Positions 8,249-63,999 of a stretch of 64,000 nucleotides of DNA are shown here, one piece after another. Below the pieces are notes generated by a model. The model was given only the letters and a program-made list of their open reading frames with translations, did no database searches and had not been told where the DNA came from. The translations under genes were made by a program, and so were the position numbers. Each line of letters opens with the position of its first letter. The stretch's first letter is position 1. The stretch lies in the NCBI GenBank assembly GCA_044226625.1, contig JBGAGQ010000014.1:41329-105328 (forward strand), read 5' to 3'. Source of the stretch: Thermoanaerobaculia bacterium (lineage in GTDB: Bacteria > Acidobacteriota > Thermoanaerobaculia > Multivoradales > UBA5704).

Positions 8249-8284
8249 CGGCTGCCCCCGCTCCTTGGAGAGGGTCTTCGAGGC

Positions 8285-11278
8285 TTAGAACAGCACCCGC
8301 ACGCCGATCTGCGCCTGGCGCGGCTCGCCCGCTCCGCTCTGGACCGTGCCGTCGAAGTTGAAGATCAGGCTGGTCACCTCGGGGCGTCGGAAGTTCGCGC
8401 TATTGAAGACGTTGAACACGTCGATCGCCGGCTGGATCGTCAGGTTGCCGACCTTGAAGTCGCGCGAGATCCGGAAGTCGAGCGCGTTGAACGCGTTGTC
8501 CTTCCGGCCCAGGTTCCGGCGCGTGACCGTGCCGTCCGGGTTGATCCGGTCCTGCGGCGTGTTGGCGTCGCGCCCGTCGCGGGTGATCGACTTCGGTTGC
8601 GCCGAGCGGTAGGAGTAACGGAAGTTGACGTCGAAACCGTGAGGGGCCTGCCAGAGCAGCCAGGCGTTCACCCGGTGGCGCTGGTCGCGGTCGGAGTAGG
8701 AGTACTCCTTCTCGAGGTTGGTGACCTTCGCGTAACGGAACGAGAACGGATCGCGCTCGTTGTCGTCGTCGGAGAGGTCGCGCGACCAGGTGTAGTAGAC
8801 CTGGAACTGCGTGCCGTTCGACGGCTTCTTGGTGAGGCCCAAGGTGACCCCGTTGTAGAGGCTCTTCGCGCTCGACTGAACCACCGTGAGCGTGTTGATG
8901 CCGTTCGCGCCGCCCGGCGCCAGGCCGGTGCTCCAGGGCGAGCCGAGCAGGGGATCGTTGGCGTTGATGAAGCGCGTGATGTGCTCACCCTTGGCGTAGT
9001 TGTACTTGACCAGGACGCCCAGGGTCGCGCCGATCTCGCGCTCGTACGAGACGCTCGCCTGGGTCGTGCGCGGGTTCTTGAAATCCTTGTCGAAGACGAA
9101 GACGTCGGGCAGGAACGGCGCGCCGATCTCGGAGGCAGGGATCAGGTTCGGGTAGGCCGGAACCGGCCCGAGCACGCCGGTGAGCGCGCTGTTTCGGAAG
9201 ATCGTTTGGCCGATGCTGCCGTTGGTCGATCGCGACGAGGCGAGAGAGAGCCCGGGGACCCGGGCGTAGAAGATACCGCCGTTGACCCGTACGACCGACT
9301 TGCCGTCGTTGTTCGGATCCCAGGTGAGCCCGAGCCGCGGCTGCCACATCGAGTAGTCGCTCGGAATCTTCCCATCGGACGGGAAGGTCTGCGGTCCCGC
9401 CGCGGTCGTGACCGTCTTGCCGATGAACGGCGCGAAGAACACCTCGGACGGGGGCGTGCGCGGATCGGGCTGGATCTGCGCCTCCCAGCGGAGGCCCGCC
9501 TGGATCGTCAAGTTCGACCGCGGCTGCCACTTGTCCTGGAGGAAGGCGGCCGGCTCCTTCTGGCGGATCTTCTGCCGCCCCGACTCCTCGACCGTTCGGC
9601 CGCCGACGCCCGCCTGCTGGAGGTAGAGGAGGACCGGGCCGGTGATCGAGGTCCCCGGCGGGCAGACGCCGACCTGCGAGGTCGAGCCGTCGGAACACTC
9701 GACGTAGTGCGAGTTCCGTACGTAATTGAGGAACCCGTCGGTCGAGCTGAAAATGAATCGGCCGTTGCCGAAGCCGACGAACGTCTGTGCCGAGACGACG
9801 TCGTTGTATTCGACGCCCAGCTTGATCGAATGATCTTTCCGGAGCAGCGAGAGGTTGTCGTTGAACTGATACCGCTCGTCGTAGTACTCGACCGGGATGA
9901 AGAACGGCTCGCCGAAACGATAGTTCTTGCCGAAGTCGAACGCCGTGTCGGGGAGCGGCCGGTTCTGGCCGGTGACGTTCGGACCCTCGTACGGCCGCGG
10001 CCGGTTCTCTCGGGCGAACTGGAACCGTAGCTCATTCAAGAGCGAGGACGATACGGTCGAGATCAAGCTGCCGGTGAGCGAGCGGGAGTCGTCCTTTTCA
10101 TTGGCGTTCGCGCTGCGCCCCCAGGAGTCGACGTCGAAGGTGCCGTTCTTCTGCTCGGACTTCGTGTAGTTCAGGCGGATCGTCGCGAGGTTCGACTCGG
10201 TGGCCTGCCAGTCGAGCTTGGCGAGGGCGACGAGCGCGTCGTTGGAGCGGTCGATCGGACCGTTTTCGTCCGGGCTTCCGAGGCTGGCGAGTACGGCGAC
10301 CACGCGCGGATCGATTCGGTTCGGATCGGTCTGCTTGGTCGAATCCCCCTTCTGCGAATCGAGGGCGAGGAAGTAGAACAGGTTGTCCTTGCGCAGCGGT
10401 CCTCCGAGCGTGAAGCCGCCTTGCGTCTGCGTCGAATCGAATTTCTTCGCGCGCGTGCCGTCGGGATTTTCGGCGCGCGAGGAGAACGCGTCGTCCTTGT
10501 AGAACAGGTGAGCCGTTCCGCTTCGGACGTTGGTGCCCGACTTGGTGACGACGTTGACGAACCCGGAGGCCGAGCGGCCGAACTCTGCGTTCGCGCCGTC
10601 GGCCACCACCACGACCTCCTGGACCGCGTCGAGGTTGAAGGTGAACGCCGGCCGTTGGCCGCCACGCTGCTCGCCGAAGAACGGATTGTTGAAGTCCGCG
10701 CCGTCGACCGAGACGTTGTTGCTGATCCCCTTCTGGCCGTTGATCGAAAGCTCGTCGCCATCCGGCCCCTGGACGATCGTGACGCCCGGGGTGAGCTTCG
10801 TGTAATCGAGGAAGTTGCGGCCGTTGTTCGGCAGGTTCTCGATCGAGGCGACGTCGATGCGCGTCGTCCCCTCGGTGCGCGTGGTCTCGACCACCGGCGC
10901 GTCGGCGGTGACCAGGATCTGGTCTTCGACCGCGGAAACCTTCATGTCGAAGGTCAGGCTCACGGTCTGGCCGACGGCGAGGTCGATTCCTTCGCGCACC
11001 AGGGTCGAAAAACCCTGGAGCGCCGCGGTGATTCGGTAGGGTCCGAGCGGCAGCAGCACGCCGCGGAAACGTCCGTCCTCGTCCGAAGAAGTCACCTTCT
11101 CGAAGTTGGTCGCCGTGTTTTGCAGCGTGACCGTAACCCCGGAAAGCGGCGCGCCGCTCTCGTCGGCGATCCGCCCTTCGATGACGCCCGTGGTGGCCTG
11201 CGATTGCGCGTAGACGCCGGTCGCGAGCGCGAGCAGCAGCGCAAGGCAGACGAGGGGCGCGCGGTGGATTTTGCGCAT
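8285..11278 (-). CDS. TonB-dependent outer-membrane receptor (Oar-like, N-terminal carboxypeptidase-regulatory-like domain)
   Basis: Signal peptide; GVIEGRIADESGAPLSG; LPNNGRNF; AEFGRSASGFVNVVTKSGTN plug motif; PRLG; C-terminal PRQAQIGVRVLF. RBS GGAGG upstream. Confidence 0.93.
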   Translation of the reverse strand: MRKIHRAPLVCLALLLALATGVYAQSQATTGVIEGRIADESGAPLSGVTVTLQNTATNFEKVTSSDEDGRFRGVLLPLGPYRITAALQGFSTLVREGIDLAVGQTVSLTFDMKVSAVEDQILVTADAPVVETTRTEGTTRIDVASIENLPNNGRNFLDYTKLTPGVTIVQGPDGDELSINGQKGISNNVSVDGADFNNPFFGEQRGGQRPAFTFNLDAVQEVVVVADGANAEFGRSASGFVNVVTKSGTNVRSGTAHLFYKDDAFSSRAENPDGTRAKKFDSTQTQGGFTLGGPLRKDNLFYFLALDSQKGDSTKQTDPNRIDPRVVAVLASLGSPDENGPIDRSNDALVALAKLDWQATESNLATIRLNYTKSEQKNGTFDVDSWGRSANANEKDDSRSLTGSLISTVSSSLLNELRFQFARENRPRPYEGPNVTGQNRPLPDTAFDFGKNYRFGEPFFIPVEYYDERYQFNDNLSLLRKDHSIKLGVEYNDVVSAQTFVGFGNGRFIFSSTDGFLNYVRNSHYVECSDGSTSQVGVCPPGTSITGPVLLYLQQAGVGGRTVEESGRQKIRQKEPAAFLQDKWQPRSNLTIQAGLRWEAQIQPDPRTPPSEVFFAPFIGKTVTTAAGPQTFPSDGKIPSDYSMWQPRLGLTWDPNNDGKSVVRVNGGIFYARVPGLSLASSRSTNGSIGQTIFRNSALTGVLGPVPAYPNLIPASEIGAPFLPDVFVFDKDFKNPRTTQASVSYEREIGATLGVLVKYNYAKGEHITRFINANDPLLGSPWSTGLAPGGANGINTLTVVQSSAKSLYNGVTLGLTKKPSNGTQFQVYYTWSRDLSDDDNERDPFSFRYAKVTNLEKEYSYSDRDQRHRVNAWLLWQAPHGFDVNFRYSYRSAQPKSITRDGRDANTPQDRINPDGTVTRRNLGRKDNAFNALDFRISRDFKVGNLTIQPAIDVFNVFNSANFRRPEVTSLIFNFDGTVQSGAGEPRQAQIGVRVLF

Positions 11279-50112: not shown

Positions 50113-53100
50113 TCATTCGGGGATGGGCAGGCCCAAGGGTACCGATCCCAAGGGGTATCCGGCGGCTGCCACGGTCACATCCGGCGGGTAGTAGAGGGTG
50201 ATCCACTTGAGCAGGTCGGCGTCGTAGACGCGCTCCTTTCGCATCTTCAAGGTCTGGACGAACGGCAGGTTGGTTCGTCCGACCGGGACGCCGTTCACGC
50301 GGACTTCGCCGTCGATCGGCTGATTGTTGAACGCCTCGCGGGCCGTGACCGTGAACGTGGTGGGCATCCCCACGGGCGTCGGGAAGGGTTGGATGCTCAG
50401 TACCATTCGTGGGGAATAGAACGGCGGCCAAGAGATCGAGCCGTCGTTGTAGCCGCTCGACTTGACGACTCCGGACGGCGGGTTGCTGCCGAACGCATAG
50501 CTGAACGGCGCGTTCGCCGCCGCCACGTCCACACCATCCAGCCAGACGCGCGCCGCCACCGGCGCACCGGAGATCGAGTCCACGGCCCGGACGACGACGC
50601 TGCTGGTCCGGTTCTTCGGAATGCCGTTCGGTTCGACCGTCGTCTGGAACGTCGCACGGACCAGCGGAAAGGCGACGGTCTTGACCGGAAAACCAGGCGC
50701 CACCGCCCCTCCGCTCGTGCCCATGGCGGTAAAGGTGGTGACGAACGGCGCATTCGTCGAACCGACGTCGATTCCTCCCACGATCACGCGGCCGGCGACG
50801 GGCGCCCCGGTGCGCGAATCCGAACAGCGCACGGTGACCGCCGTGGCTTGGAAGAGCCGGATCGTCGTCGGCTCGACGCTCACCGAGAGAGTCGGCTTGT
50901 AGAACTGGACGGGAACTCCGGTTTCGGAGTGATCGTCGGCGACGACCGAGAGCTCCGGCATCACTTCGATCGTGGTGCTCGTGTGCGATTCCGGATCCCA
51001 TTCGGTGACGAAATGGCTGTCGAATCTGCGCTCTATCGCGACGTCCGTCGCCCCGGCGGCCACGTCGTCGACCATCAGCTGCCCGCGGATGGCGCTGCCG
51101 TCGAACGAATCCTGGGCGTGGATGGTGACCGTGGTCGAAACGCCAAGGGGGAGGAGAGACGGGGAAGCCGAGGCCGACATCGGCGTTTCGAACCGCATCG
51201 CGTCGGGAACGGCGACGCGGCCCAGAATGTCTTCCACCCAGAGCGAGGTGCCGTGGGCCGCCGCCCCGGTCGCGGTGCAGAGGCGGCGCAGGAGGTTTCG
51301 CTGTTCGGAGGTCGGCAGGAAGGTGTACCTGTGCTCCGAACCGGCCCGTACGAAATTGCCCGCGAATTCGACGTCGAGCAACGAAACGACGGTCGCATTC
51401 CCGCCCGCCACGGGCACTGGGTCGAACGCGGCGAGATGGACGCGCCAGACGTCCCGCGGCTGGGAAAGCACGATCGTGATCGGTGCGGTATCCGCGAGCG
51501 GCCAGACGAATCGTACGGTCTCGACGCCGGGCGGAGAGTCGTCCGCGGTGTTCGCGCCGATCGTGACCGAAGCGTTCACGTTCCCGTGGGCGAGGTTCAC
51601 CGTCAGCGGACCGAACAGGCCGCTTTCGAAGGGCAACAGCTCGTCGTCCCGCTTGTCCCAATGGAAAGCGAGCCAGCGATTTCCGCGTCGGAGGATCTTC
51701 AACCGGGTCTCTCGGTTGAAGATCGACGGAGGACGCTTGTGCGGCGCTAGCGGCTCGTCGGAAAGGTTCACTTCGAAGTTGGGGACCCGGAGCGGCGCGC
51801 TCCACCAGAACTTCCACGCGCGCAGGGTGAGCTGGTTGTCGACGTCGAGCCACGGGTCGCCTTGGCCGGCGAGGAGCGCCGCTTCGTCCGCGTCGCTCGC
51901 GGGCGTCACCTCGTAATACTGAGCTCTGGAGTCCACGTCGGCGTACACGCCGAAATGGCTGAACCGGTCGGCCGCCTGGAACACCTCTTCGGGAAGGAAT
52001 CTCCACGGATGGGAAAAACCGACGCTCGGGGCTTCTCCCGCGACGAGCTCGGGAATCGCCGGCACGAGGCGGTGGTCGAACGGCAGGTAACGCTGGACAT
52101 ATCGGCCTTGGACGCCGTCTCGATAGCCCTTGAGATGGATCGTCAGGTCCTCCCGCAGGCGAATCGTCTCGGGATAGACGTTACGTGTTGTGGCGGACGC
52201 CGGTGGCAGGATCTCGTCGGCGCCCGTTGCGACGCTGGATTCGGCGGCGGTCGCCGGCAGGGCGCGCCAACGCCAGGTCGTGTCCATGGAGGAGAAGCTG
52301 AAGTTCGTGCTGTAGATCAGCGGTTGCCCGCTGTTTGGAGGGTTACCGGTCACCAGAACGATCTGTCCCGCGACGGCGAGACGCGAGTTTGCGGCGATGC
52401 GTCCGGCATGGAAAGGGCTCCACCACTTGGCCCTGTCCCAATGAGGATAGAGCTTCTCGGAGCGTCCTTCCTCGTCCTTCAGATCTTTGACGAGGGCAAA
52501 CATCAGTCCTTCCGTGTCGGCGGGATCCGCAAGGCGCCAACGCTGGGAAAAATAGGTTTGCTCGTCGATGAGGAGGAGTGCGTAACGGACCGGTTGCGAA
52601 GGCAGCTCGACCAGCAGGTAGAAATTCGACGTTCCGTCGATGAATCCGTCGCCGTCGCGTAGAGGGCCGTTGAAGAGTCGGTATCCCCAAGAGGCGGTGA
52701 CGAAGTCGAGCGGCCAGCCGAAGCGCGTTCCGGTAGATAAAGGCTGCAACTCCCCGCCGAACCCCCGCTCGTATTGCTGGTGGGCGTGGACGTGGCCGAC
52801 GGCGATGTCCAGGACTTTGGAAAATTTGATCCCTTTGAGGACCACCGACCCGGCGCCGCCGATGAATTTCGTCTCGTCTCGGAGCTCGATTCCGGCGGGA
52901 GGTGCCGAGATCAGGGGAGCCTCCGACTCGAGCTGCTCGCGGGCCCCGTGGACGATCGCGTCGATGGTGTCGGTCACCTCGGTCGCCGTTGGATGCCAGT
53001 AGGCAAATCCGGGCGCGTGCTCGATCGCTCGAGCGAGGAGATCGAAGCCCAGCATGGCCGGAGAGAACAGCCCCAAGGGAGTGCGGCAATCCAGCCGGTG

Positions 53101-54117
53101 CCAAACTCCGCGCTCGACCTTCACCACCATGAAGTCGCCGACGTTCTTCTCCATGACCCAGCGGAAGGTCGGAAAGCGCTCGGCATGCGGATGGTCGAAA
53201 TAGTTGCCGACCAGGTGTGCGACCTTGTCCTGGACGAGGGAGCCCGGTTGGTTGAATTCCGGATCCAGCTTGAAGTAGTTGCTGGGCACGGCCAGGTCGC
53301 CCCCGTCGTCGTCGCCGTGGATGAACGATTCGTCCAGGGTCGCGAAATAGAAGGCGCCCTTTCCCACTTCTTTGGCGAAAACCCGCCCGCCGCTGGCAGC
53401 GATCAAGTCGAATGGCGGCGCCGGATATTTGACGCCTTTCCGAAGCACGTCGTACGAAACCGCCTGCGCGAGGGTCTGTCGAATGCCGTTCGGATGGGTC
53501 GCCACCACGGTGCCGTTCTGGATCTCGAATTCGTAGCGTTTCCCGGTATCGCGGTAGAGAAAGCGTGCTCCCGACTGGCCCTGGTCCAAGGCGTCGGACG
53601 GCGGACCTCCCATGCTCCAGGCTACCGCCCTGTGGCGGGGAACCGAGGGGATGTCCAGTGGATCCGAGGCGGGCTGGACCGGGTCCAGCATGTAGTTGTG
53701 ACCGAGGACGCTGCGGAAGATCGGAAGCGCCGGAAAATCCACCACTTCGAACCAGCCGTCGAAGACCTGAATCGTGCGGTCTTCCGTAAGGGGCGGCGGC
53801 AGCATGCCCGCGACCGCCGCGCCGCGGACGTGCTCGCCCGGGGCGGTGAAAGTGCCGTTTTTCGAGAAGCGCAGAAAGTCGCCGTCCGGTCCTGCCGCCT
53901 GCCAGATCCAGAAGCGCGTGGTTCCCGCGACCTGAATCTGTAAATGCTTGTTGGGGAAGTCGGTCGAGTTGGGCCAGGGGACCCACATGTCGACCTCGAG
54001 GCTCGTTCCCGGCAGTACGTTCACCCCATGTCCCAACGTGTTTTGATTCTCAAGGTTTAACAGCCGGAGGATCGACGTGCCGCGATTCTCCAGGCGGTTG
54101 ATTCGGGTAATGCCCAT
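50113..54117 (-). CDS. Large hypothetical protein (1334 aa) with about four C-terminal Ig-like repeats
   Basis: Uninterrupted 4-kb ORF; RBS GAGGAG before ATG 54117; repeats of the form SV(E/Q)P...VTV...D...GAPV.GRV...G..VG.TN.PF. Confidence 0.8.
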   Translation of the reverse strand: MGITRINRLENRGTSILRLLNLENQNTLGHGVNVLPGTSLEVDMWVPWPNSTDFPNKHLQIQVAGTTRFWIWQAAGPDGDFLRFSKNGTFTAPGEHVRGAAVAGMLPPPLTEDRTIQVFDGWFEVVDFPALPIFRSVLGHNYMLDPVQPASDPLDIPSVPRHRAVAWSMGGPPSDALDQGQSGARFLYRDTGKRYEFEIQNGTVVATHPNGIRQTLAQAVSYDVLRKGVKYPAPPFDLIAASGGRVFAKEVGKGAFYFATLDESFIHGDDDGGDLAVPSNYFKLDPEFNQPGSLVQDKVAHLVGNYFDHPHAERFPTFRWVMEKNVGDFMVVKVERGVWHRLDCRTPLGLFSPAMLGFDLLARAIEHAPGFAYWHPTATEVTDTIDAIVHGAREQLESEAPLISAPPAGIELRDETKFIGGAGSVVLKGIKFSKVLDIAVGHVHAHQQYERGFGGELQPLSTGTRFGWPLDFVTASWGYRLFNGPLRDGDGFIDGTSNFYLLVELPSQPVRYALLLIDEQTYFSQRWRLADPADTEGLMFALVKDLKDEEGRSEKLYPHWDRAKWWSPFHAGRIAANSRLAVAGQIVLVTGNPPNSGQPLIYSTNFSFSSMDTTWRWRALPATAAESSVATGADEILPPASATTRNVYPETIRLREDLTIHLKGYRDGVQGRYVQRYLPFDHRLVPAIPELVAGEAPSVGFSHPWRFLPEEVFQAADRFSHFGVYADVDSRAQYYEVTPASDADEAALLAGQGDPWLDVDNQLTLRAWKFWWSAPLRVPNFEVNLSDEPLAPHKRPPSIFNRETRLKILRRGNRWLAFHWDKRDDELLPFESGLFGPLTVNLAHGNVNASVTIGANTADDSPPGVETVRFVWPLADTAPITIVLSQPRDVWRVHLAAFDPVPVAGGNATVVSLLDVEFAGNFVRAGSEHRYTFLPTSEQRNLLRRLCTATGAAAHGTSLWVEDILGRVAVPDAMRFETPMSASASPSLLPLGVSTTVTIHAQDSFDGSAIRGQLMVDDVAAGATDVAIERRFDSHFVTEWDPESHTSTTIEVMPELSVVADDHSETGVPVQFYKPTLSVSVEPTTIRLFQATAVTVRCSDSRTGAPVAGRVIVGGIDVGSTNAPFVTTFTAMGTSGGAVAPGFPVKTVAFPLVRATFQTTVEPNGIPKNRTSSVVVRAVDSISGAPVAARVWLDGVDVAAANAPFSYAFGSNPPSGVVKSSGYNDGSISWPPFYSPRMVLSIQPFPTPVGMPTTFTVTAREAFNNQPIDGEVRVNGVPVGRTNLPFVQTLKMRKERVYDADLLKWITLYYPPDVTVAAAGYPLGSVPLGLPIPE

Positions 54118-54246
54118 GGCTCGCTCCTCAAGCGACGTTCGAAGAGGGATACGCCGGCTGTGGGGGAGAAGTTGCGCAGCTCTTGTCGGCACCTCGGCGA
54201 GGGACCGCGGGGGGTGTTTCGTGGTGGTAGGGTTCGTCCCCGCTCC

Positions 54247-54990
54247 ATGCGTCGCGCCGACCGCCTGTTCCGCCTGCTGCTCCGCCTCCGCCCCGGCCGG
54301 GTGGTGACCGCCGCGCGTTTGGCGCGCGAGCTGGAGGTCTCGGAACGGACGGTCTACCGTGACATCGCCGACCTCGCCGCGTCCGGTATGCCGATCGAGG
54401 GGGAGGCGGGGGTGGGCTACCGGCTGCAGGGGATCGACCTGCCGCCGCTCATGTTCGAGCGCGACGAGGTCGAGGCGATGGTTCTCGGCGCGCGCGTGGT
54501 GGAAGGCTGGGGAGACGAGCGGCTCGCCCAGGCGGCGACCGAGGCGCTCGCGAAGATCCAGGCGGTCCTGCCGCGTGGGCGCTCCCACCTGATCGATGAG
54601 ACCCGGCTGTTTGCGCCGGTCCACGGCCGACGCCCCGCCGAGCGGCTGCCGCTCTCGGTGTTTCGCTTGGCCGTAAGAGATCGGCGCTTGGTGAAGATCC
54701 GCTACCGCGACGAAAGCGGGGCCGAGACCGAACGCACCGTCCGGCCCCTGGCCCTATCGTTCTACCCGCCCGTCTGGCTGCTCGTCTCCTGGTGCGAGGC
54801 GCGGTGCGACTTTCGCAGCTTCCGGCTCGATCGGGTGCTCGATCACGAGACCCTGGCGGAGGTGTTCTCCCCCGAGCCGGGCAAAAACCTCGCCGACTTC
54901 GTCGCAAGGATCGAAAGGATGGAAGAGGAGCGCCAGGAAGCCGATCTCATCCAGGCCCGGCGGCCCCTCGCGTCTCAATCCTCGCCGTAA
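54247..54990 (+). CDS. YafY-family HTH-WYL transcriptional regulator
   Basis: MRRADRLF, VTAARLARELEVSERTVYRDI, GEAGVGY, ERTVRP, WLLVSWCEARCDFRSFRLDR. Confidence 0.94.
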   Translation: MRRADRLFRLLLRLRPGRVVTAARLARELEVSERTVYRDIADLAASGMPIEGEAGVGYRLQGIDLPPLMFERDEVEAMVLGARVVEGWGDERLAQAATEALAKIQAVLPRGRSHLIDETRLFAPVHGRRPAERLPLSVFRLAVRDRRLVKIRYRDESGAETERTVRPLALSFYPPVWLLVSWCEARCDFRSFRLDRVLDHETLAEVFSPEPGKNLADFVARIERMEEERQEADLIQARRPLASQSSP

Positions 54991-55451
54991 GGCATGTCGG
55001 GGGTCTTGCCGACCAGCCGGGCGTACACCGACAGCGCGCCACGATGATGGCCGGTGTGGTCGATCAGCGCTTCCAGCGTGTGGTAACGCGGCCGCTGCCC
55101 GAGGATCGGATTGTCCGGCATCGCCGCCGCAAGTTCCTCGTTCGATCGCTCTTCGACCGCTTTGCGCATGCGCTCCCAGGCGTCGGCCATCCAGGTGCGG
55201 GCGGTCGCGAGCGATTCGATCTTCGCGGTCTCGGCGAGCGCCGCCTCGAAATCCATCTGCCAGTTGTCCGCGAAACCCCCTTCGCGGAACCAATCGATGG
55301 TCTGCGCGGCATGGGCGACCTGGCCCGCCACCGTCATCATCTCGGGAGTGGGGCGGAAGGCCGAATCCTCCTCCGCGAAGCAGCGGGTCGTGCGGTCGAA
55401 AAATTTAGCGGTCGCGGCGATCGCCTGCAGCGCCTCGGCTTTCAAGTCCAT
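54975..55451 (-). CDS. DinB/YfiT family protein
   Basis: FRPTPEMMTVAGQVAH, HTGHHRGALSVYARLVGKTP (His triad); RBS GAGGAG. Confidence 0.9.
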   Translation of the reverse strand: MDLKAEALQAIAATAKFFDRTTRCFAEEDSAFRPTPEMMTVAGQVAHAAQTIDWFREGGFADNWQMDFEAALAETAKIESLATARTWMADAWERMRKAVEERSNEELAAAMPDNPILGQRPRYHTLEALIDHTGHHRGALSVYARLVGKTPDMPYGED

Positions 55452-55516
55452 GGCAACGTCTCCTCGATGCGCCGCGGGTCCGTCCGGCGGCGCAAGGAGA
55501 GCATCGCGCACTCCTC

Positions 55517-55643: not shown

Positions 55644-56441
55644 TCAGCTTTGGGCTTCGTCGCCCTCTTCGCTCTCACCGCTCGCGTCATTCTCTTGCGT
55701 CGAGTCGAGCACCAGCTCGAGGAAGATCGACGACAGCTCGGCCGAGAGCGCCTCCGGGCCGTCGGCCGCGAAGGGCCGCAGCTCGTCGAGGTCCTCGGGC
55801 TCGAGCGGGAAGAGGGCCGCCGCGAGATGCCAGCCGTCCTCGAACGGCACGAGCCGCGCGGCGAGCAGGTCGCCGACTTCGACCGCCTCGACGATCTCGT
55901 TCTCGGTTTGCGCCCGCCGCTCTTCGGTCGAAGCGTCGAGCGCCTCGCGCAGGAGAAATGCCGACGCGTCCGGCTTGGCGACCACCTCGTAGACGCTGAT
56001 CGGTCGGCCGGAGAGCGCGGAGAGCCAGGCTCTCTCCTCCGGCTTGAGCGAAGGGCCGCCGGAGGCGAGGATCAGCTCCGCGGCGTGGGTCTCTCGGCCG
56101 CCCACCTCGAGCTTCGCCTCGGAGAGCACCCAATCGCCGAGCTGATCGCGAAACGCGTCGTCCGCCTCGTCGTCGAGCTCTTCGAGGAGAGCCGCCTCCT
56201 CGTCGTCGAGCCGGCCGAGAAATTGCTCCTCGACCGCCTGCTCGACCGCGTGGCGATGATGCGTCCAGAGCCAGTCGAGGGCGGCGTTCATGCCGCTCGC
56301 CACCCGCTCGAGCGCCGAGTATGGACGGCTCTCTTGGCCCAGGTGGCAGTTCTTGAACTTCTTGCCGCTGCCGCACGGGCAGGGATCGTTACGTCCTACG
56401 TTCGAAGCGTCGAAAGCTGTATGCGAATGGGAATCGGTCAC
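55644..56441 (-). CDS. SEC-C metal-binding motif protein
   Basis: [18 protein letters not shown] at the N-terminus followed by an acidic domain. Confidence 0.85.
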
Positions 56442-56533: not shown

Positions 56534-57331
56534 ATGGGATTGAAAGAAGTCCTGTCGCGAATGAAGCTCGTCGAGCTGCCCGACCCGCCGCCGGCGACGG
56601 CCCCGGTGGGGAAGCCTGCGGCGCGGCCCGCGGCCGGGGGATCGACGACGGCGCCCGCCGTGCCGGATCTCGATCAACTGCTCGCGTCGATCCCCGCTTC
56701 CGACCTCGATCAAAAGAAGCTCGAGTCGCTCGCGGCGAACGCCCCTCGGGCGGAATCCGCCGCTGCGGAGCCCGGGGCCGACGACGGCGAATCGAACCCG
56801 GCGATCCCGGATTTCGAGGCGATCTATCGCGCCGCGGGGATCGAGCCGCCGGCGCACGGATACTCCGCCGTCAAGGTCCTGGAGATCCTGGAGAGTCCCG
56901 AGCTCGCGCCGCTCGACGCCAAGGCGAAGGCCGCTGCGCTCGGGGGATTTCTGAAGATGAATCCGACCGGGCCGGTGCCGCTTTCGGACGTCATCCAGGA
57001 CGCCGTCCGCCGCGACCAGGCGCTCGACCGTTTCGAGGAATTCCTGGAAGCGAAGCTCGACGCGCGCGCGGCCGACGCGGAGCGCCAGAACGCCGCGCTC
57101 CAGGCCGAGCTCGACGAGCTGTCGCGGAAGAACCGCGAGCTGATGGAGACCAACCGCCGCGCTCTCGAGGTCGAGCGCTCAGCCCTCGCGGCCTGGCGTG
57201 CCACGAAGGTCGCGGAGGAACGCCGCCTGTTCGATGCGGTCGCCCCGTTCGTCGACCAGAATCCGATCACGACCGATTCCGAAAAAGGCGCTCCCGAACC
57301 GTCCACCGCCCCGGCCAAGGGCGCTTCGTAA
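56534..57331 (+). CDS. Hypothetical protein (short amphipathic N-helix, Pro-rich linker, helical core, long coiled coil); first gene of the pspA operon
   Basis: RBS GGAGG; -10-like TAGAAT at 56500-05; typical codon usage; heptads in FEEFLEAKL...EERRLF. Confidence 0.8.
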   Translation: MGLKEVLSRMKLVELPDPPPATAPVGKPAARPAAGGSTTAPAVPDLDQLLASIPASDLDQKKLESLAANAPRAESAAAEPGADDGESNPAIPDFEAIYRAAGIEPPAHGYSAVKVLEILESPELAPLDAKAKAAALGGFLKMNPTGPVPLSDVIQDAVRRDQALDRFEEFLEAKLDARAADAERQNAALQAELDELSRKNRELMETNRRALEVERSALAAWRATKVAEERRLFDAVAPFVDQNPITTDSEKGAPEPSTAPAKGAS

Positions 57332-57392
57332 CAGAAAACCCGAGCCGCTACGCGGCTCGTTTTCCGCTTCGAGCCATCGAGGAGGCTTCCCC

Positions 57393-58151
57393 ATGTTTCG
57401 CCGCCTTGCCCGCGTCTTCAAATCGTGGATCGGCTACTTCATCTCCTTCGCCGAGGATCCGGAGGTCATGCTCCAGGAATCGATCGAGGAGATGCGCAAC
57501 ACGATGCCCCGGTTGAACCAGGTCCTGATCACCACCCGCGCGACCGTGCTCCGGCTCGAGCAGGAGCGCGATGAGCTGGTACGGAAGGAAAAGCAGCTCA
57601 CCGCATCGATCCAGGCCGCCCTCCAGGACGGCAGCGCCGACGCGAGGAGACTCGCTGAGCAGGACGCGGTGGCGCTCCAGGGCACCCGCCAGGAGCTGGC
57701 CGCGACCCAGGAGCAGCTGGCCGCCGCGAGCCACGCGTTCGAGAACGCAAAGCTGTCGGTGGAAGACATCAAGGAGAAGCTCCGGCTCAAGATCGAGCAG
57801 AGCCGCAAGGCCATCGCCGAGTCGCAGAAGGCCGAGGTCATGCGCGACGCGGCGAGCGCTTTGACCGAGCTCGACAGCTACGGCACCGCGGCGACCGCGG
57901 ACAAGTATCTCGACCAGATCAAGCAGAAGGTCGCCGAGTCGAAGGCTGCGGTCGAAGTGGCGACCGGCGGTCTCGACGTCGAGCGGATCAATCTCGAGCG
58001 CAAGGCGCGGCAGATCCAGGCGCAGAGCATCCTCTCGGAGTTCGAGGTCGAGATGGGGATCAAGAAGCCCGATGCGGTCAAAGAGGCCGCCCCTTTCCCG
58101 ACCGGCGGAACCGGTCAGGCCGCCGCGCAGAAGGTTCCGGAGGGGCGCTGA
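57393..58151 (+). CDS. pspA: PspA/IM30 (bacterial ESCRT-III) family protein
   Basis: Amphipathic MFRRLARVFKSWIGYFI followed by EDPEVMLQESIEEMR; long helical hairpin with AALQDGSADARRLA; LDQIKQKV region; RBS GGAGG. Confidence 0.85.
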   Translation: MFRRLARVFKSWIGYFISFAEDPEVMLQESIEEMRNTMPRLNQVLITTRATVLRLEQERDELVRKEKQLTASIQAALQDGSADARRLAEQDAVALQGTRQELAATQEQLAAASHAFENAKLSVEDIKEKLRLKIEQSRKAIAESQKAEVMRDAASALTELDSYGTAATADKYLDQIKQKVAESKAAVEVATGGLDVERINLERKARQIQAQSILSEFEVEMGIKKPDAVKEAAPFPTGGTGQAAAQKVPEGR

Positions 58152-58186
58152 TCCCCGGGGACTCTTTTCTCCCCGGTAGGACCTGA

Positions 58187-59080
58187 ATGGGCCTGCTCAC
58201 CCGCTACCCGGCTCTCAAAGCGGCGATCGCCAACCAGTACCAGGCGATCCTCGCCGCGGGAGCCGTGGGCTTTTCGGCGCTGATGTTGTCGCCCCTGCCG
58301 CTCCTCCTCTTCGCCGGCATCGAGCTGATGGTCATGCCGATGATGGTCGACCGCATCCGGAAGCGGATGGAGATCGAGAAGAAGTTCGCCGCCCGGAACG
58401 CGGTCGAGATGAGCCAGAAGGAGCAGTGGGACGCCCTGTCTTCGACCCATCGGGCGCGGTTCGAGCGTCTGCGGCAGCTGGTGGGCAAGGTCCAGGCGAA
58501 CTACAAAGGCCTCTCGGTGGCGAGCCAGGGCATCGTCGCCGAGCAGGAGGCGAAGTTCGACGTCATCCTGGCCGCCTGCTTGAAGCGGCTCTGGCTGCTC
58601 CAGAAGTACGACGAGATGCAGGGGGCGTTCGACGAGAGCCAGGTGGAGAAGGAGATCGCCCAGCTCAAGGCGGCGCTCGCCGTTCCGGTCGGGCAGAGCA
58701 ATCCGCCGGATCCGCTGGAGCCGCGCGTTCGCGAAGCGGTCGAGAAGAACCTGGAGATCAAGGAGCAGCTGGTGGGGGCGGTGAAGCAGAACGCCGCGAA
58801 CCGCCGCGCGCTCGATGCCGAGATCGATTCGCTGGAGTCGCTGCTCCAGCTCCTGTTCCAGAAGTCGGTCGCTGCGACCGACGCCGCCGCGTTCACCTTG
58901 GAGATCGACGACGTGCTGCAGCAGGTGCAGGCAGACGCGGCGAGCGTCGAGGAGATGGAGCGCCTGCTCGGCAGCCTGCCCGATCTCGACAGCCGCCCCC
59001 GCCTTTCGCCGCAGATCAAACAGGGGTTCGCGCCTTCGGCGCCCCCGCCGCCGCAGCGCGCCCGCGAGGGGCGGCGGTAG
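58187..59080 (+). CDS. Hypothetical membrane-anchored coiled-coil protein
   Basis: N-terminal hydrophobic hairpin (AILAAGAVGFSALMLSPLPLLLFAGIELMV), then extended heptad helices. Confidence 0.8.
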   Translation: MGLLTRYPALKAAIANQYQAILAAGAVGFSALMLSPLPLLLFAGIELMVMPMMVDRIRKRMEIEKKFAARNAVEMSQKEQWDALSSTHRARFERLRQLVGKVQANYKGLSVASQGIVAEQEAKFDVILAACLKRLWLLQKYDEMQGAFDESQVEKEIAQLKAALAVPVGQSNPPDPLEPRVREAVEKNLEIKEQLVGAVKQNAANRRALDAEIDSLESLLQLLFQKSVAATDAAAFTLEIDDVLQQVQADAASVEEMERLLGSLPDLDSRPRLSPQIKQGFAPSAPPPPQRAREGRR

Positions 59081-59125
59081 CCGACGCTCTCCGCTGACTT
59101 CGTACCCGATCCTGCGACGGAGCCC

Positions 59126-60889
59126 ATGCCCGAACCGAACGCCCTCCCCTCCGCTCCCGGCTTCCTCGATTCGCTGCCCCCGTGGGCCGCGCGCCTCGCG
59201 CGCGCCGTGCTCGCCAAACAGGCTTCGACGTTCGTCATCCACGGCGTGCCGTCCGACCTGGTTCCCGTTCGCGGCAGCGGCGGCCTCCGCTTTCTCGGCC
59301 TGGACGAGTTCCTGACCACCGAGCTGTTCGCCACCTGGCCCTCGATCATCACGTTCAACCGAGCCGAAGGGCTCGGCTTCGCCACGCCCGCCGCGCGCTC
59401 CCACTTCCAGGACCGGATGAAGGCGTACGACGCGGTGCATGGCACCACCTGGGGAGAGGGGCTGCCGCGCGACGCTCCGAACTGCTTCGCTTTGCTCGAC
59501 TCCTACTTCCGGCACGCGGCCTCGCTCTCCCCGGCCCGTCCCGTCGTCCTGCTGCTGCCGTTCGCCGAGACGCTGGTCCCCGCCGGGGACGTCTCGTATC
59601 GCACTCCCGAGGATCGGGCGGTCCTCGTCTACCTCCGCAAGTGGTCGCAGGACCCGGTGCTGCTCGCCAAGAACGTGGTGATCGTGATGGTCGCCGAGAG
59701 CCTCGCCGAGCTCGATCCGAAGCTGATCCGCTCCCACGCGACGCGCGAGTTGGAAATCGTCCGGCCCGACGCCGGGGAGCGCCGCGCCTATCTCGAAGCG
59801 GTGCGGGCACCGGGTTGGTACGAGCGCCGCTCGGAGGTCGCGGCTCTCCGCCTGGCCGAGCTGACCGCGGGCATGACCCGCTTCCAGATTGCCCAGCTGC
59901 TCGACGAGGCGGATGCCGACGGCGCCAAGCTCACGCTCGATCGGGTACGGCAGGTGAAAAAAGAGGTGATCGAGACGGAGGGGCTCGGGCTGCTCGAATA
60001 CGTCGAGCCGAAGTTCGATCTCGGCATGGTCGCGGGCATGCCGGTGGTCAAGGCGCGCCTGCGCCGGGCCGCCAAGGCGATCGCCCGCGGCAATCCCGCG
60101 GCGGTGCCGATGGGCTACCTGGTCTGCGGCCCGGTCGGCAGCGCGAAGACCTTCCTGGTCGAATGCTTTGCCAAGGAGATCGGCTTTCCGGTCGTCAAGC
60201 TCAAGAACTTCCGCTCGATGTGGGTCGGTTCGACCGAGGCGAACCTCGAGCGGATCTTGAAGATCCTCGCCTCGCTCACCCCCGTCGGCGTCATGATCGA
60301 CGAGGCGGACACCGCCCTCGGCAACCGCGAGCAGTCGGGCGATTCGGGCACCCAGAACCGCGTCTTCGGCCAGATCGCGAGCTTCATGGGCGACACGCGA
60401 AACCGCGGCAAGATCCTCTGGTTCCTGATCACCGCGCGGCCGGACCTGCTGCCGATCGACTTGAAGCGGCAGGGCCGCGCGGAGGAGCACATCCCGCTCT
60501 TCTATCCGGAGACGATGCACGAGTACGACGAGGTCTTCCAGGTGATGAAGACCAAGCTCGGCCTGCGCACGCCGGTGGCGACGCTCGCCGAGGTGACGAC
60601 GCCGGAGCGCCTGCTCGGTTTCTCGGGCTCGGACCTCGAAGCGGTGCTGGTCCGCTCGGTCCTCGAAGCCGAGGCGGCCGAATCGGCCCAGGTCGCGGCC
60701 GAGCATCTGCAGCGCGCGTTCGACGACTTCATCCCCACCACCAACAGCCGCGAGCGATTGATGCAGACGCTGGTCGCCGTTCTCGAATGCACCAGCCGCG
60801 AGCTGCTCCCCGAGTCATACCGCGATATGGACCGCGGCGAGATCCAGGCGCAGATCGCAAAGATCAAGCTGGAGCTCAAGCTGCTGTAA
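59126..60889 (+). CDS. AAA+ ATPase (SpoVK/Ycf46/Vps4 group): degenerate N-terminal AAA-like domain plus an active AAA module
   Basis: Walker A variant GPVGSAKT, pore loop SMWVG, Walker B VMIDE, SRH TARPDLLPIDLKRQGR, lid FSGSDLEA. Confidence 0.9.
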   Translation: MPEPNALPSAPGFLDSLPPWAARLARAVLAKQASTFVIHGVPSDLVPVRGSGGLRFLGLDEFLTTELFATWPSIITFNRAEGLGFATPAARSHFQDRMKAYDAVHGTTWGEGLPRDAPNCFALLDSYFRHAASLSPARPVVLLLPFAETLVPAGDVSYRTPEDRAVLVYLRKWSQDPVLLAKNVVIVMVAESLAELDPKLIRSHATRELEIVRPDAGERRAYLEAVRAPGWYERRSEVAALRLAELTAGMTRFQIAQLLDEADADGAKLTLDRVRQVKKEVIETEGLGLLEYVEPKFDLGMVAGMPVVKARLRRAAKAIARGNPAAVPMGYLVCGPVGSAKTFLVECFAKEIGFPVVKLKNFRSMWVGSTEANLERILKILASLTPVGVMIDEADTALGNREQSGDSGTQNRVFGQIASFMGDTRNRGKILWFLITARPDLLPIDLKRQGRAEEHIPLFYPETMHEYDEVFQVMKTKLGLRTPVATLAEVTTPERLLGFSGSDLEAVLVRSVLEAEAAESAQVAAEHLQRAFDDFIPTTNSRERLMQTLVAVLECTSRELLPESYRDMDRGEIQAQIAKIKLELKLL

Positions 60890-61001: not shown

Positions 61002-61250
61002 ATGAACTCCATCATCCTGTTCCTGATCATCGGCGCGGTCGCGGGTTGGTTGGCGGGAGAGCTGTGGAAAGGACACGGCTTCGGTCTGCTCGGCAACATC
61101 GTGGTGGGCATCGTCGGCGCGTTTCTGGGCGGCTTCCTGCTCGGCAAGCTCGGCGTCTCCCTGGGAGGCGGCATTCTCGGTTCGATCCTCACGGCGACGA
61201 TCGGGGCCCTGGTCCTCCTGGTGATCATCGGTTTGATCAAAAGGGCCTGA
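61002..61250 (+). CDS. GlsB/YeaQ/YmgE (transglycosylase-associated) stress membrane protein
   Basis: IIGAVAGWLAG...GNIVVGIVGAFLGG...ATIGALVLL. Confidence 0.92.
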   Translation: MNSIILFLIIGAVAGWLAGELWKGHGFGLLGNIVVGIVGAFLGGFLLGKLGVSLGGGILGSILTATIGALVLLVIIGLIKRA

Positions 61251-61913: not shown

Positions 61914-62249
61914 GTTCCCTCGCGCGGGAACACTGATCCCGGCCTCGGGATTGCTGTTCCTTCGTGGGGGATCGTTGATCCCTGGCGCGGGATCACTCTT
62001 CCTTCGTGCGGGATCGTTGATCCCTGGCGCGGGACCACCGTTCCTTCGCGTGGGATCGTTGATCCCGGGCGCGGGATCACGGTTCCTTCGCGTGGGATCG
62101 TTGATCCCTGGCGCGGGATCACCGTTCCTTCGCGTGGGACCGTTGATCCCGGGCGCGGGATCGCTGTTCCTTCGCGTGGGATCGCTGATCCCGGGCGCGG
62201 GATCGCTGGTCCTTCGCGCGGGATCGTTGATCCCGGGCCCGGGAGCGCT
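61914..62249. repeat. Tandem array of 8 x 42 bp with an internal palindrome
   Basis: Consensus gttccttcgcgtGGGATCgttGATCCCkggcgcgggatcrct; units start at 61914, 61956, 61998, 62040, 62082, 62124, 62166 and 62208; no spacers. Confidence 0.95.
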
Positions 62250-62272: not shown

Positions 62273-63229
62273 CTACTTCTTCGGCAGGACCAGCTCCCAT
62301 CCGATCTCGATCAGGTTCGGATCGGCGATGCGCCCCTTGTTGGCGTCCCAGATCTCGGGCCAGCGGCCGATCTTGCCGAGCTGGTCGCGGGCGATGGCGG
62401 AGAGCGTGTCGCCGGACTTCACGGTGTAGATGCTCTCGCCGGCCGCCGCGACCTGTTCCTTGGCGATCGGCGCGGGGCCTGTGCCCCCGAGGTATTTCCG
62501 GATGATCTGCCGGTACTGGTCCGACGCGCGGAGACTCTTGATCGAGGAGTTGACCAGCTTGAGGAGGCTCGATGCGCCGCGGCGGACGGCGACGTTGTAG
62601 GCGGATTTCGTCAGGTTGAACTGGACGATCTCGAGCCCCTGGTACTCCTTGAGCTCCTCCTGGGCGTACGGGTAGTCGTAGATGAAGGCGTCGATCTTCC
62701 CCTGCTTCAAGAGGTCGAAGTAGCCGTCCTCGTACTTCTCGATCCGCTTGTACCCGCGGACCATCCCCTTGACCGCCTCCTCGGCGGCGGGGTCGTTGAA
62801 GATGCCGATCACCTTGCCCGACAGGTCGCCAATGCTGTGGATCGAGCTCCCTTTCTTGACGATCAGGCAAAGGCCGTAGTCGTAGTACGAGTCCGACCAG
62901 TCGAGGCCGGCGATCGAATCGTCCGCGGTATAGCCGGAGATGATCACGTCCGCTTTGCCGTTGATCAGGCGGCCGGGCAGCTCGCTGTATTTGCCCGGAA
63001 CGATCACGACCGTGTCGACGCCGATCCGCTTCGCGATCGCGTTGGCGATCTCCCAGTCGAAGCCGGCGTATTTGGAGCCCTCTTTGAACAGCATCGGCGG
63101 CGTGCCGGGCTCGGCGGCGACGCGCAGCACCCCGGCGTCGACGATCTTCTGGAGCGAGTCGTCGGCCAGGGCCGGATGCGAAAGCGCCAGGACGGCGAGC
63201 GCGGTAAGGGCGAGAGCGGGAACTTTCAT
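62273..63229 (-). CDS. Family 3 solute-binding protein fused to a C-terminal LysM domain
   Basis: Signal peptide MKVPALAL...ALA; GVLRVA, GFDWEIANAIAKRIG, DWSDSYY; LysM YTVKSGDTLSAIA...WPEIWDAN...PNLIEIGWELVLP. Confidence 0.88.
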   Translation of the reverse strand: MKVPALALTALAVLALSHPALADDSLQKIVDAGVLRVAAEPGTPPMLFKEGSKYAGFDWEIANAIAKRIGVDTVVIVPGKYSELPGRLINGKADVIISGYTADDSIAGLDWSDSYYDYGLCLIVKKGSSIHSIGDLSGKVIGIFNDPAAEEAVKGMVRGYKRIEKYEDGYFDLLKQGKIDAFIYDYPYAQEELKEYQGLEIVQFNLTKSAYNVAVRRGASSLLKLVNSSIKSLRASDQYRQIIRKYLGGTGPAPIAKEQVAAAGESIYTVKSGDTLSAIARDQLGKIGRWPEIWDANKGRIADPNLIEIGWELVLPKK

Positions 63230-63261
63230 GGCGAGGATCCTCGGTTTCTCTCGATGGGAGG

Positions 63262-63999
63262 TCATTTCGTTTTGGCGCAGCGGAAGCCGAGCGACGAGCT
63301 GCGGTCGGTCGGCGATTTGCCGATCCGGAAGTGGGTACGGCCGTCGTTCAGGTCCCAGGAATCCCAGGAACCGCCGGCCGCGAGGTAGTTGTCCGGCTCG
63401 TCGGGGCTGTTCGTCGAAGTCCATTCGGAGACGTTCCCGGCCATCCCGAGCACGCCGTACGGGCTCGCGTCGCGGCCGTACTTCTCGTCGTCGACCGCCC
63501 AGGTGGGGATCTTCTTCGCCGCCGTGTCCTTCTTGTCGTGATCGGCGCCGAGGATGTTCACCGCGCTCGGATCGATCGTCGCGCCGGTCGGGAACTCGCG
63601 CCCGTCAGTGCCGCGCGCCGCTTTCTCCCACTCTTCGATCGTGGGCAAGCGCCCGCCGGCCCACTTGCAGTACGCCTTGGCGTCACCCCACGAGACGAAG
63701 ACCACCGGATTGTTGCGGTGGCTGTCGAGATACGCCTCGTCGTCCCAGTAGTTGGGAACCTCTCGCGGGCCGCACGAGGAGCCGGCCGCGCACTGGGCGA
63801 GGAACGCCTCGTATTCGGCGTTGGTCACCTCGGTGCGGTTGATCCGGAACGTCGAAACGTCGACCGTCTCCTGGTTCTGTCCGGAGGAGAAGATGCCTCC
63901 CGGAATCTCGATCCACGGCTCGTTGCTCCTCGCAACCTGGTTCGTGGTCTGTTCCGGAGAATCGCTTTCGTTCGGCGTCGACGGCGTCGAGGCGCTCTC
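63262..63999 (-). CDS. FGE-sulfatase (SUMF1/PvdO-like) domain protein, 5' end runs off the window
   Basis: WIEIPGG, FRINRTEVTNAEY, PVVFVSWGDAKAYCKW, RLPTIEEWEKAARG, SPYGVLGMAGNVSEW, LGFRC; the frame stays open to the window edge. Confidence 0.88.
   Translation of the reverse strand, partial: ESASTPSTPNESDSPEQTTNQVARSNEPWIEIPGGIFSSGQNQETVDVSTFRINRTEVTNAEYEAFLAQCAAGSSCGPREVPNYWDDEAYLDSHRNNPVVFVSWGDAKAYCKWAGGRLPTIEEWEKAARGTDGREFPTGATIDPSAVNILGADHDKKDTAAKKIPTWAVDDEKYGRDASPYGVLGMAGNVSEWTSTNSPDEPDNYLAAGGSWDSWDLNDGRTHFRIGKSPTDRSSSLGFRCAKTK

Follow-up and report, generated by a model that had tools for sequence, protein, structure and literature searches.

A conserved acidobacterial gene cluster pairs PspA with a tandem AAA ATPase in a candidate membrane-remodeling module

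Structural work since 2021 has assigned PspA and Vipp1 to the ESCRT-III superfamily, and it is still asked what energy source drives their remodeling. In passages that address this point, Liu et al. 2021, among others, call it unclear whether an equivalent ATPase exists for PspA/Vipp1, a 2025 review states that a Vps4-like ATPase appears to be absent in bacteria, and Makarova et al. 2024 limit the occurrence of ESCRT systems to archaea and eukaryotes. A cluster of four plus-strand genes at positions 56534-60889 of a 64,000-nucleotide stretch of Thermoanaerobaculia bacterium DNA (assembly GCA_044226625.1, contig JBGAGQ010000014.1; this whole stretch is called the window below) raises the question of whether an ATPase encoded beside PspA serves this purpose. 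In the list of open reading frames (ORFs), the genes g1, pspA, g3, and that for an AAA ATPase are separated by gaps of 61, 35, and 45 bp, which is the layout described in the original prediction, made by a model from the sequence. The genome assembly is 6.6 Mb long and 98% complete. The window, which stems from an uncultured environmental acidobacterium, has a GC content of ~67%, and the closest related loci carry the label Thermoanaerobaculia. We conclude, with moderate confidence, that the cluster is a conserved acidobacterial module for membrane stress or membrane remodeling built around the only PspA of its genome, in which a double-ring ATPase anchored by g3 would extract PspA subunits.

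The second gene of the cluster (57393-58151, plus strand) encodes a protein of 252 amino acids, in which residues 2-212 match the Pfam PspA_IM30 family, PF04012 (E = 1.7e-17; 64.2 bits against a cut-off of 33.9), over profile positions 3-204 of 220, nearly the full length of the profile. When a profile of this family (alignment A7) was compared with solved structures, positions 1-200 matched the chains of Synechocystis and Nostoc Vipp1, Synechocystis PspA, and E. coli PspA, with E values from 8.6e-23 to 6e-8. These matches to solved Vipp1 and PspA indicate that the protein truly belongs to the ESCRT-III branch of bacteria, and on this sequence evidence we identify it, in line with the original prediction, as a true PspA/Vipp1 of the ESCRT-III superfamily. 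It is also the sole PspA_IM30 match in a search of the whole assembly. Beyond the ESCRT-III core, the protein has a C-terminal extension (about residues 205-240) with a family-conserved motif, L-x-E/A-F/Y-x-V/x-E/x-x-G, or roughly L-x-E-F-x-V-E-x-G (alignments A3 and A7), and this motif is kept in relatives with just 21 to 28% overall identity. Because the motif is conserved within the C-terminal extension, we suggest that the PspA tail is a docking site, which by analogy could act like a MIT-interacting motif (MIM).

The fourth gene (59126-60889, plus strand) encodes a protein of 587 amino acids that is present as a single copy in the genome and matches the Pfam AAA family, PF00004, at residues 332-457 (E = 9.3e-23). 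Among solved structures in the PDB, residues 325-515 match best to the D2 cassettes of Cdc48/p97/VAT (E = 1.5e-28) and next to AFG2, NVL, Rix7, and i-AAA. This cassette, which we call D2 (about residues 325-515), aligns with p97 at Walker A (GPVGSAKT with GPPGTGKT), pore loop 1 (SMWVG with SMWFG), Walker B (DEAD with DELD), the arginine fingers (KRQGR with CRPGR), and the lid (GFSGSDL with GFSGADL), and its pore loop 2 reads GDSG. The pore loop S-M-W-V-G (residues 364-368), which had originally been likened to that of unfoldases, does align with the p97/Cdc48 D2 loop and is invariant in 21 close relatives. Across 20 family members with identities down to 25%, the W-V-G of this loop, GDSG, DEAD, and both arginine fingers are kept in nearly all; the exceptions are one member that lacks the pore-loop Trp (L123), two that read DEGD (L123 and L131), and two that read GDAG. 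Judged by these motifs, D2 is an active-looking cassette of the classical AAA clade that keeps every element of a substrate-threading motor; its assignment to this clade is based on scores from family models and the PDB, among them NCBIfam scores of 67.3 bits for CDC48 (TIGR01243; cut-off, 802.65), 63.1 bits for FtsH, and 33.9 bits for CdvC (cut-off, 650).

The preceding part of the ATPase holds a degenerate cassette (D1, about residues 30-300), with F-x-L-H-G-N in place of the P-loop and F/Y-A-E at the Walker B position. A profile of residues 1-300 built from diverse relatives matched both D1 and D2 of Cdc48, beginning at the Walker B strand and ending with the lid (E = 1.9e-10), with residues ~130-270 aligned to the AAA cassettes of Cdc48, and the motif GxxxxGK[ST] was found in the D1 of none of the 20 family members compared. 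Taken together, the profile match and the absence of a P-loop point to a tandem AAA protein with a dead D1; a comparison of the two halves with each other from a shallow alignment had given an hhalign value of 0.1%, and the diverse profile searched against the PDB later settled D1 as AAA. The protein ends in a conserved, family-specific C-terminal extension (residues 530-587). Pfam searches found no MIT domain (at E <= 0.01, or at E <= 10 in residues 1-320), no Vps4_C, no Cdc48-type N-domain family (double-psi barrel; D1 begins ~30 residues from the N terminus), and no helix-turn-helix (HTH) or other output domain. The idea of a Vps4-like ATPase thus stands for the pore loop, the Walker B Glu, and the arginine fingers and does not stand for the architecture, which has no MIT or Vps4_C domain, has two cassettes, and scores only 33.9 bits against CdvC.

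Upstream of the ATPase gene, g3 (58187-59080, plus strand) encodes an orphan membrane protein of 297 amino acids, characterized here from alignments and an AlphaFold2 (AF2) model (pLDDT 83). In the model, two hydrophobic helices (residues 8-33 and 37-71) precede a helical bundle (residues 76-265), and the tail is Pro/Arg rich (alignments A2 and A5). From the sequence and the model, the two hydrophobic helices are predicted to form a membrane hairpin, in agreement with the hairpin anchor first proposed, and a basic stretch after helix 2 predicts that both hairpin ends, and also the bundle, are cytoplasmic. No Pfam or NCBIfam family was found for g3 (Pfam matches at E <= 10 were noise only), and no Pfam domain was present in any of the 120 g3 relatives listed. 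Comparison of g3 with PspA gave hhalign values of 0.2% with close alignments and 4.8% with diverse alignments, profile searches of the PDB returned noise, and the best Foldseek match in the PDB had an E value of 0.23. The best VIA match (Z = 10.6) was to designed helical bundles, below the level that is meaningful for helical proteins, and no ESCRT-III, PspA, or Vipp1 chain was among the 50 VIA rows listed. Pfam Snf7 matches across 401 acidobacterial genomes never coincided with the ATPase loci. Of the 37 related loci with g3, 22 show a 4-bp overlap between its ORF and that of the ATPase (first-start ORF calling), and g3 adjoins the ATPase gene even where transporter genes spanning 3.5 kb part it from PspA, so that g3, first proposed as a recruiter of PspA, is coupled most tightly to the ATPase and not to PspA.

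The first gene, g1 (plus strand), has an ORF that can be read from 56459 or 56534 to 57331; position 56534 is an internal ATG with GGAGGGG upstream, and from this start the gene encodes an orphan protein of 265 amino acids. Its N-terminal peptide, MGLKEVLS.MK.VE, is invariant and amphipathic (alignment A1). In the AF2 model (pLDDT 77), an N-terminal helix (residues 3-9) is followed by a low-confidence, disordered, Pro/Ala-rich linker (residues 12-88), a small helical domain (residues 94-141, in a conserved region of about residues 90-150), and one helix of ~93 residues (150-242) that is probably a coiled coil. The alignment and model bear out the original description of an amphipathic N-helix, a Pro-rich linker, and a coiled coil. 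No Pfam or NCBIfam family was found for g1 (noise only in Pfam at E <= 10); its best Foldseek match in the PDB had an E value of 1.6, its best VIA match (Z = 5.5) was to coiled coils alone, a PDB profile search returned noise, and hhalign values were 4% against PspA and 12% against g3. A search of the ESM Atlas with g1 returned acidobacterial hypothetical clusters only. A comparison of g1 and g3 with ESCRT-III folds, which the original prediction had proposed, gave no match by Foldseek, VIA, profile searches, or hhalign, and these absences leave room for an ESCRT-III-like fold in either protein.

To define how far the cluster is conserved, we compared 80 close loci from metagenome-assembled genomes with ATPases 70 to 94% identical to that of the window, all but one of them (L037) labeled Acidobacteriota or one of its classes. 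PspA is adjacent to the ATPase in 75 of these loci, g1 in 68, and g3 in 37, and in about half of this clade the cluster consists of three genes, g1-PspA-ATPase. Of the five loci that lack PspA, four are truncated by the edge of a contig; in the remaining one, L008, the pair g1-PspA is encoded on a different contig of that genome. In a distant set of 20 loci, 25 to 37% identical in the N-domain of the ATPase, hidden Markov model (HMM) searches detected PspA in 15 loci, g3 in 13, and g1 in 3 (L113, L125, and L129). In L123, PspA was detected by a broader HMM, and the order is ATPase, a weak g1-like ORF (E = 6e-4), and PspA. Two of the distant loci, L125 and L129, have all four genes in the order g3-ATPase-g1-PspA, and this retention through rearrangement of gene order is good evidence that all four genes act together.

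Across the phylum sample of 401 genomes, in which positions of the ATPase N-domain and PspA_IM30 were compared by hand, the N-domain was found in 62 genomes (mostly at 25 to 37% identity) and PspA_IM30 in 130. PspA was present in 55 of the 62 genomes with the N-domain versus 75 of the 339 others, counts that overstate independence because the sampled genomes are kin. In 34 of the 62 genomes, PspA and the N-domain share a contig and are no more than 10 kb apart; 13 of these loci are compact (<=3 kb), 20 have a spacing of 4.4 to 5.6 kb, and one, in genome G226, has PspA 7.6 kb from the ATPase. These data answer the question of co-conservation that the original prediction had posed: clustering of the four genes is far above chance. 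The module is single copy and vertically spread through the phylum, with stable partners and changing flanks. A further 200 genomes, from the phylum of an oddly labeled bin (G401), gave generic partial AAA matches only, and the ESM Atlas gave tentative leads to clusters labeled Pseudomonadota, Actinomycetota, and Planctomycetota.

The compact module of the window differs from a more common long form, which has a transporter and a protein with solute-binding protein (SBP) and OmpA domains between PspA and g3. In the spaced loci L117, L118, and L127, the order is PspA, SBP-OmpA plus permease plus ABC ATPase, g3, and ATPase; in L128, the SBP-OmpA protein alone was recognized, and the second inserted ORF has no Pfam family. 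The locus of G226 (L124) has a 920-residue Ser/Thr protein kinase with TPR repeats (7002-9764) between g3 and the ATPase. Near the cluster in the window, a gene for a fusion of SBP_bac_3/NMT1 and LysM domains (62273-63424, minus strand) is convergent with the ATPase gene and lies 1.4 kb downstream of it. By tblastn, a gene for this SBP-LysM protein is found downstream of the ATPase in 14 of 142 loci at 67 to 88% identity, directly after the ATPase stop codon in one of them (L054); 13 of the 14 loci contain g3, and none is a three-gene locus. Since SBP-LysM parallels the SBP-OmpA protein of the long-form operons, it may by analogy be a fifth, peptidoglycan-anchored component.

A plausible ribosome-binding site precedes each of the four genes. 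The spacer between g1 and pspA (57332-57392) folds at -24.4 kcal/mol (z = -2.65; 2 of 200 shuffled sequences were as good) and contains a plus-strand stem-loop (57341-57359) with a GC-rich 8-bp stem followed by UUUU. Similar hairpins are present in the closest loci (L002 to L005), and other GC hairpins occur in some further loci; in many relatives, this spacer is merely 11 to 15 nucleotides long. The stem-loop may be a partial terminator, an attenuator, or a stabilizer, and it may set the ratio of g1 to PspA. The hairpin in the spacer between pspA and g3 was no better than shuffled sequences (z = -1.25), and a scan for sigma-70 promoters found none. In keeping with the original prediction, Pfam found no PspB, PspC, PspF, or Lia domain in the nine flanking and cluster ORFs tested; elsewhere in the genome, on a separate contig, there is an ORF with a PspC domain, and a whole-genome search for PspB found none.

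In the mechanism that we infer to be the best, ATP-driven extraction or turnover of PspA polymers, the ATPase would form a double-ring hexamer held at the inner membrane face by the hairpin protein g3. It would engage PspA polymers, probably via the PspA C-terminal extension and/or g1, and ATP hydrolysis by D2 would pull subunits out and so disassemble, recycle, or reshape the carpets or rods of PspA. Vps4 performs this job on ESCRT-III; here it would be reached from a Cdc48-like and not a Vps4-like ATPase. With its amphipathic N-terminal peptide, flexible linker, and coiled coil, g1, originally proposed as an adaptor or co-polymer, is most likely an adaptor or membrane tether. A broader reading, which we put forward only tentatively and regard as doubtful, is that of a self-contained bacterial ESCRT-III machine, independent of Vps4, with a g3-tethered, Cdc48-derived, double-ring unfoldase that would thread subunits and thereby turn over the polymer, a MIM-like PspA tail, g1 as nucleator or adaptor, and transporter coupling in many relatives, where the machine would be mechanically coupled to a peptidoglycan-anchored solute-binding/ABC transport complex. 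If true, the PspA/Vipp1 branch would have its bacterial equivalent of Vps4, which has long been sought.

Several observations weigh against extraction of PspA by the ATPase. The contact between the two proteins is a putative one; a complex prediction with ATPase D1, PspA, and the cytoplasmic part of g3, in which g3 was the partner, gave a score of 0.00 and has no bearing either way. Homology to PspA or ESCRT-III was detected for neither g1 nor g3, and the terminator-like hairpin between g1 and pspA means that the four genes may not share one transcript. The sensor-1 Asn of D2 is replaced by Ala in the window ATPase and by Ser, Cys, or Ala in 18 of 19 distant members (it is Asn in L131), and Walker A reads GSAKT in the window's clade versus GTGKT in distant members, so that, as read from these residues, ATPase activity may be slow or regulated. 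PspA is encoded elsewhere or on another contig in 20 of the 62 genomes with the N-domain, and PspA_IM30 was not found by Pfam in 7 of the 62, one of which (G063) has a divergent PspA by a custom HMM; these 20 and 7 genomes indicate that some of the ATPase family functions with no PspA linked to it. Full-length but distant homologues of the ATPase (~28% identity; N-domain HMM E ~ 1e-31) also occur on non-mobilizable Paenibacillaceae megaplasmids of 0.4 to 0.5 Mb, namely plasmid pSC2 of Paenibacillus polymyxa SC2 (L143) and a plasmid of Brevibacillus halotolerans (L144), and neither PspA, g1, nor g3 was found near these genes, whose neighbors include many small hypothetical genes and genes for DUF262, DUF1385, NrnB, and a methyltransferase. 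The ATPase family is therefore not universally a partner of PspA, and the transporter-bearing long forms suggest that transport or assembly of the envelope, and not PspA itself, could be what the ATPase serves.

This last point leads to the main alternative, which we consider rather unlikely, in which g3 and the ATPase are a protease-less machine of the FtsH/Msp1/Bcs1-like type for extraction or quality control of membrane proteins or for complex assembly, and PspA only seals or stabilizes the membrane during this work, as a co-worker and not a substrate. The tight coupling of g3 to the ATPase, seen in the 22 of 37 overlaps and in their adjacency despite intervening transporter genes, would fit such a machine, as would the spacing in 20 of the 34 genomes with linkage, which equals that of the ABC-transporter long form (four of these loci were checked for gene content) and ties the ATPase to a complex for transport or the envelope. 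So would the 27 of 62 genomes in which the ATPase family occurs without a linked PspA, the plasmid homologues without PspA, and the nearly equal FtsH and CDC48 scores (63.1 and 67.3 bits). However, no gene in the window's clade is linked more consistently than PspA (75 of 80 loci), the family-specific motif at the PspA C terminus co-varies with the presence of the module, the four-gene set survives changes in gene order, and the compact form encodes no candidate alternative substrate. Extraction of PspA remains the reading that we prefer.

The deviations in sensor 1 across the family and in Walker A in the window's clade would also fit slow hydrolysis or a switch-like use of ATP, and with it an improbable reading in which the ATPase acts on PspA as a regulator or holdase and not as a threading motor, comparable to PspF-PspA of Proteobacteria but without a DNA-binding domain. 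Its nucleotide state would set its affinity for PspA, keeping PspA soluble or inactive until membrane stress, and g1 and g3 would be stress sensors. D1 as a noncatalytic scaffold is consistent with this idea, as is the binding of PspA to the AAA+ protein PspF reported in a passage of PMC7619361. Yet pore loops, Walker B, and arginine fingers kept in nearly all 20 members are the pattern of a working translocase, and the absence of an HTH or other output domain in the Pfam search also speaks against a regulator. Far less probable still is an anti-phage or abortive-infection system in which membrane-active effectors would be under the control of the AAA ATPase. Matches to the defense ATPases IteA/IetA and TRIP13, which are weak and generic to AAA proteins (E = 2e-6 to 3.5e-9), a WYL regulator 1.5 kb upstream, and the DUF262 and methyltransferase genes around the megaplasmid homologues point in this direction, but the PADLOC matches of g1, g3, and PspA are noise, those of the ATPase cover the shared AAA core only, and the WYL gene is common to only 4 of 80 loci. 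A single-copy module that is vertically spread, with stable partners and changing flanks, and that holds the only PspA of its genome likewise argues against defense.

The flanks of the cluster vary among relatives. Upstream lie genes for a WYL and HTH regulator (54160-54990), a DinB-family protein (54975-55511, minus strand), and a SEC-C-motif protein of 265 residues (55644-56441, minus strand), and just 3' of the ATPase gene is a small transglycosylase-associated (GlsB-like) membrane protein (61002-61250), which is downstream in 7 of 80 loci at a variable distance. The SEC-C, DinB, WYL, and GlsB-like genes are common to merely 4 to 7 of the 80 loci; for the WYL, DinB, and SEC-C genes, these are the closest loci only. 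A 1,503-residue ORF further upstream (50113-54624, minus strand) matches no Pfam family at E <= 0.001. Between a 194-residue ORF and the SBP-LysM gene, a tandem repeat at 61914-62244 has 7.9 copies of a 42-bp unit with 88% matches, and long repetitive ORFs cross it on both strands.

The canonical Psp (PspF-ABC) system of Proteobacteria and LiaIH of Firmicutes likewise combine a PspA effector with an AAA+ protein and small membrane partners. PspF, though, is an NtrC-type sigma-54 activator with an HTH, whereas the ATPase here is a classical-clade tandem AAA protein without a DNA-binding domain, and by Pfam g1 and g3 are unrelated to PspB, PspC, and LiaI. With Cdc48/p97/VAT, the ATPase shares tandem cassettes, the D2 motifs, and the second region of homology; it differs in having no double-psi-barrel N-domain, a D1 without a P-loop, and a family-specific C-terminal extension. 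Other tandem AAA unfoldases with one inactive ring include Pex1/Pex6 and NSF.

The likeness to ESCRT-III/Vps4 (CdvB/CdvC) lies in a gene for an ESCRT-III superfamily polymer beside one for a classical-clade AAA protein with an aromatic-hydrophobic-Gly pore loop, and in a polymer subunit with a conserved C-terminal extension. Unlike Vps4 and CdvC, the ATPase has two cassettes and not one, lacks MIT and, in Pfam, the signature of the Vps4 C-terminal helix/beta-domain, and is closer to Cdc48 D2 and FtsH than to CdvC, and the polymer is of the PspA/Vipp1 branch and not Snf7. If the function does match that of Vps4, it would have an independent origin.

The closest known system is the one flagged by a single comparative-genomics paper, that of Ravi, Anantharaman, Aravind, and Gennaro (2024, mSystems; PMC11237479). 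In its main-text passages, bacterial PspA occasionally co-occurs with a protein of two AAA+ domains, the N-terminal copy of which is inactive, and with a transmembrane-bearing helical partner called a Snf7 homologue; longer forms add an ABC ATPase, a permease, and a PBPb-OmpA protein, and ATP-dependent membrane remodeling comparable to Snf7/Vps4 is proposed. The original prediction had cautioned that its novelty needed checking, and the PspA-AAA+ association and the ESCRT-III/Vps4 analogy were indeed in print in these passages. Here too, PspA adjoins an ATPase that has a pair of AAA+ domains and a degenerate N-terminal copy, and it has a helical partner with predicted transmembrane segments, g3, and the ABC ATPase, permease, and SBP-OmpA genes of the long form are found in relatives (L117, L118, and L127, and partly L128); since these features reproduce the published description as given there, the kind is already known. 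Full-text literature searches found no experimental study of bacterial PspA-AAA+ operons or their ATPase.

The window differs from the published module in its compact form without a transporter, in the addition of g1, and in that the Snf7 likeness reported for the transmembrane partner in those passages was not detected for g3 by Pfam, hhalign (4.8%), or fold searches. The main-text passages do not mention g1, and Acidobacteria has no occurrence in the main text (PMC11237479); Text S2.2 or Table S3 of that paper may list g1, acidobacterial loci, or the evidence for Snf7. With a sole PspA, four genes of modest size, and the mutational targets Walker B E393, pore-loop W366, and the PspA C-terminal motif, the compact locus makes the question of the energy source directly testable with recombinant proteins. 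To the published kind it adds g1, the PspA tail motif, and the sensor-1 and Walker A deviations, as well as the tight g3-ATPase coupling, the acidobacterial distribution, and a conserved SBP-LysM neighbor.

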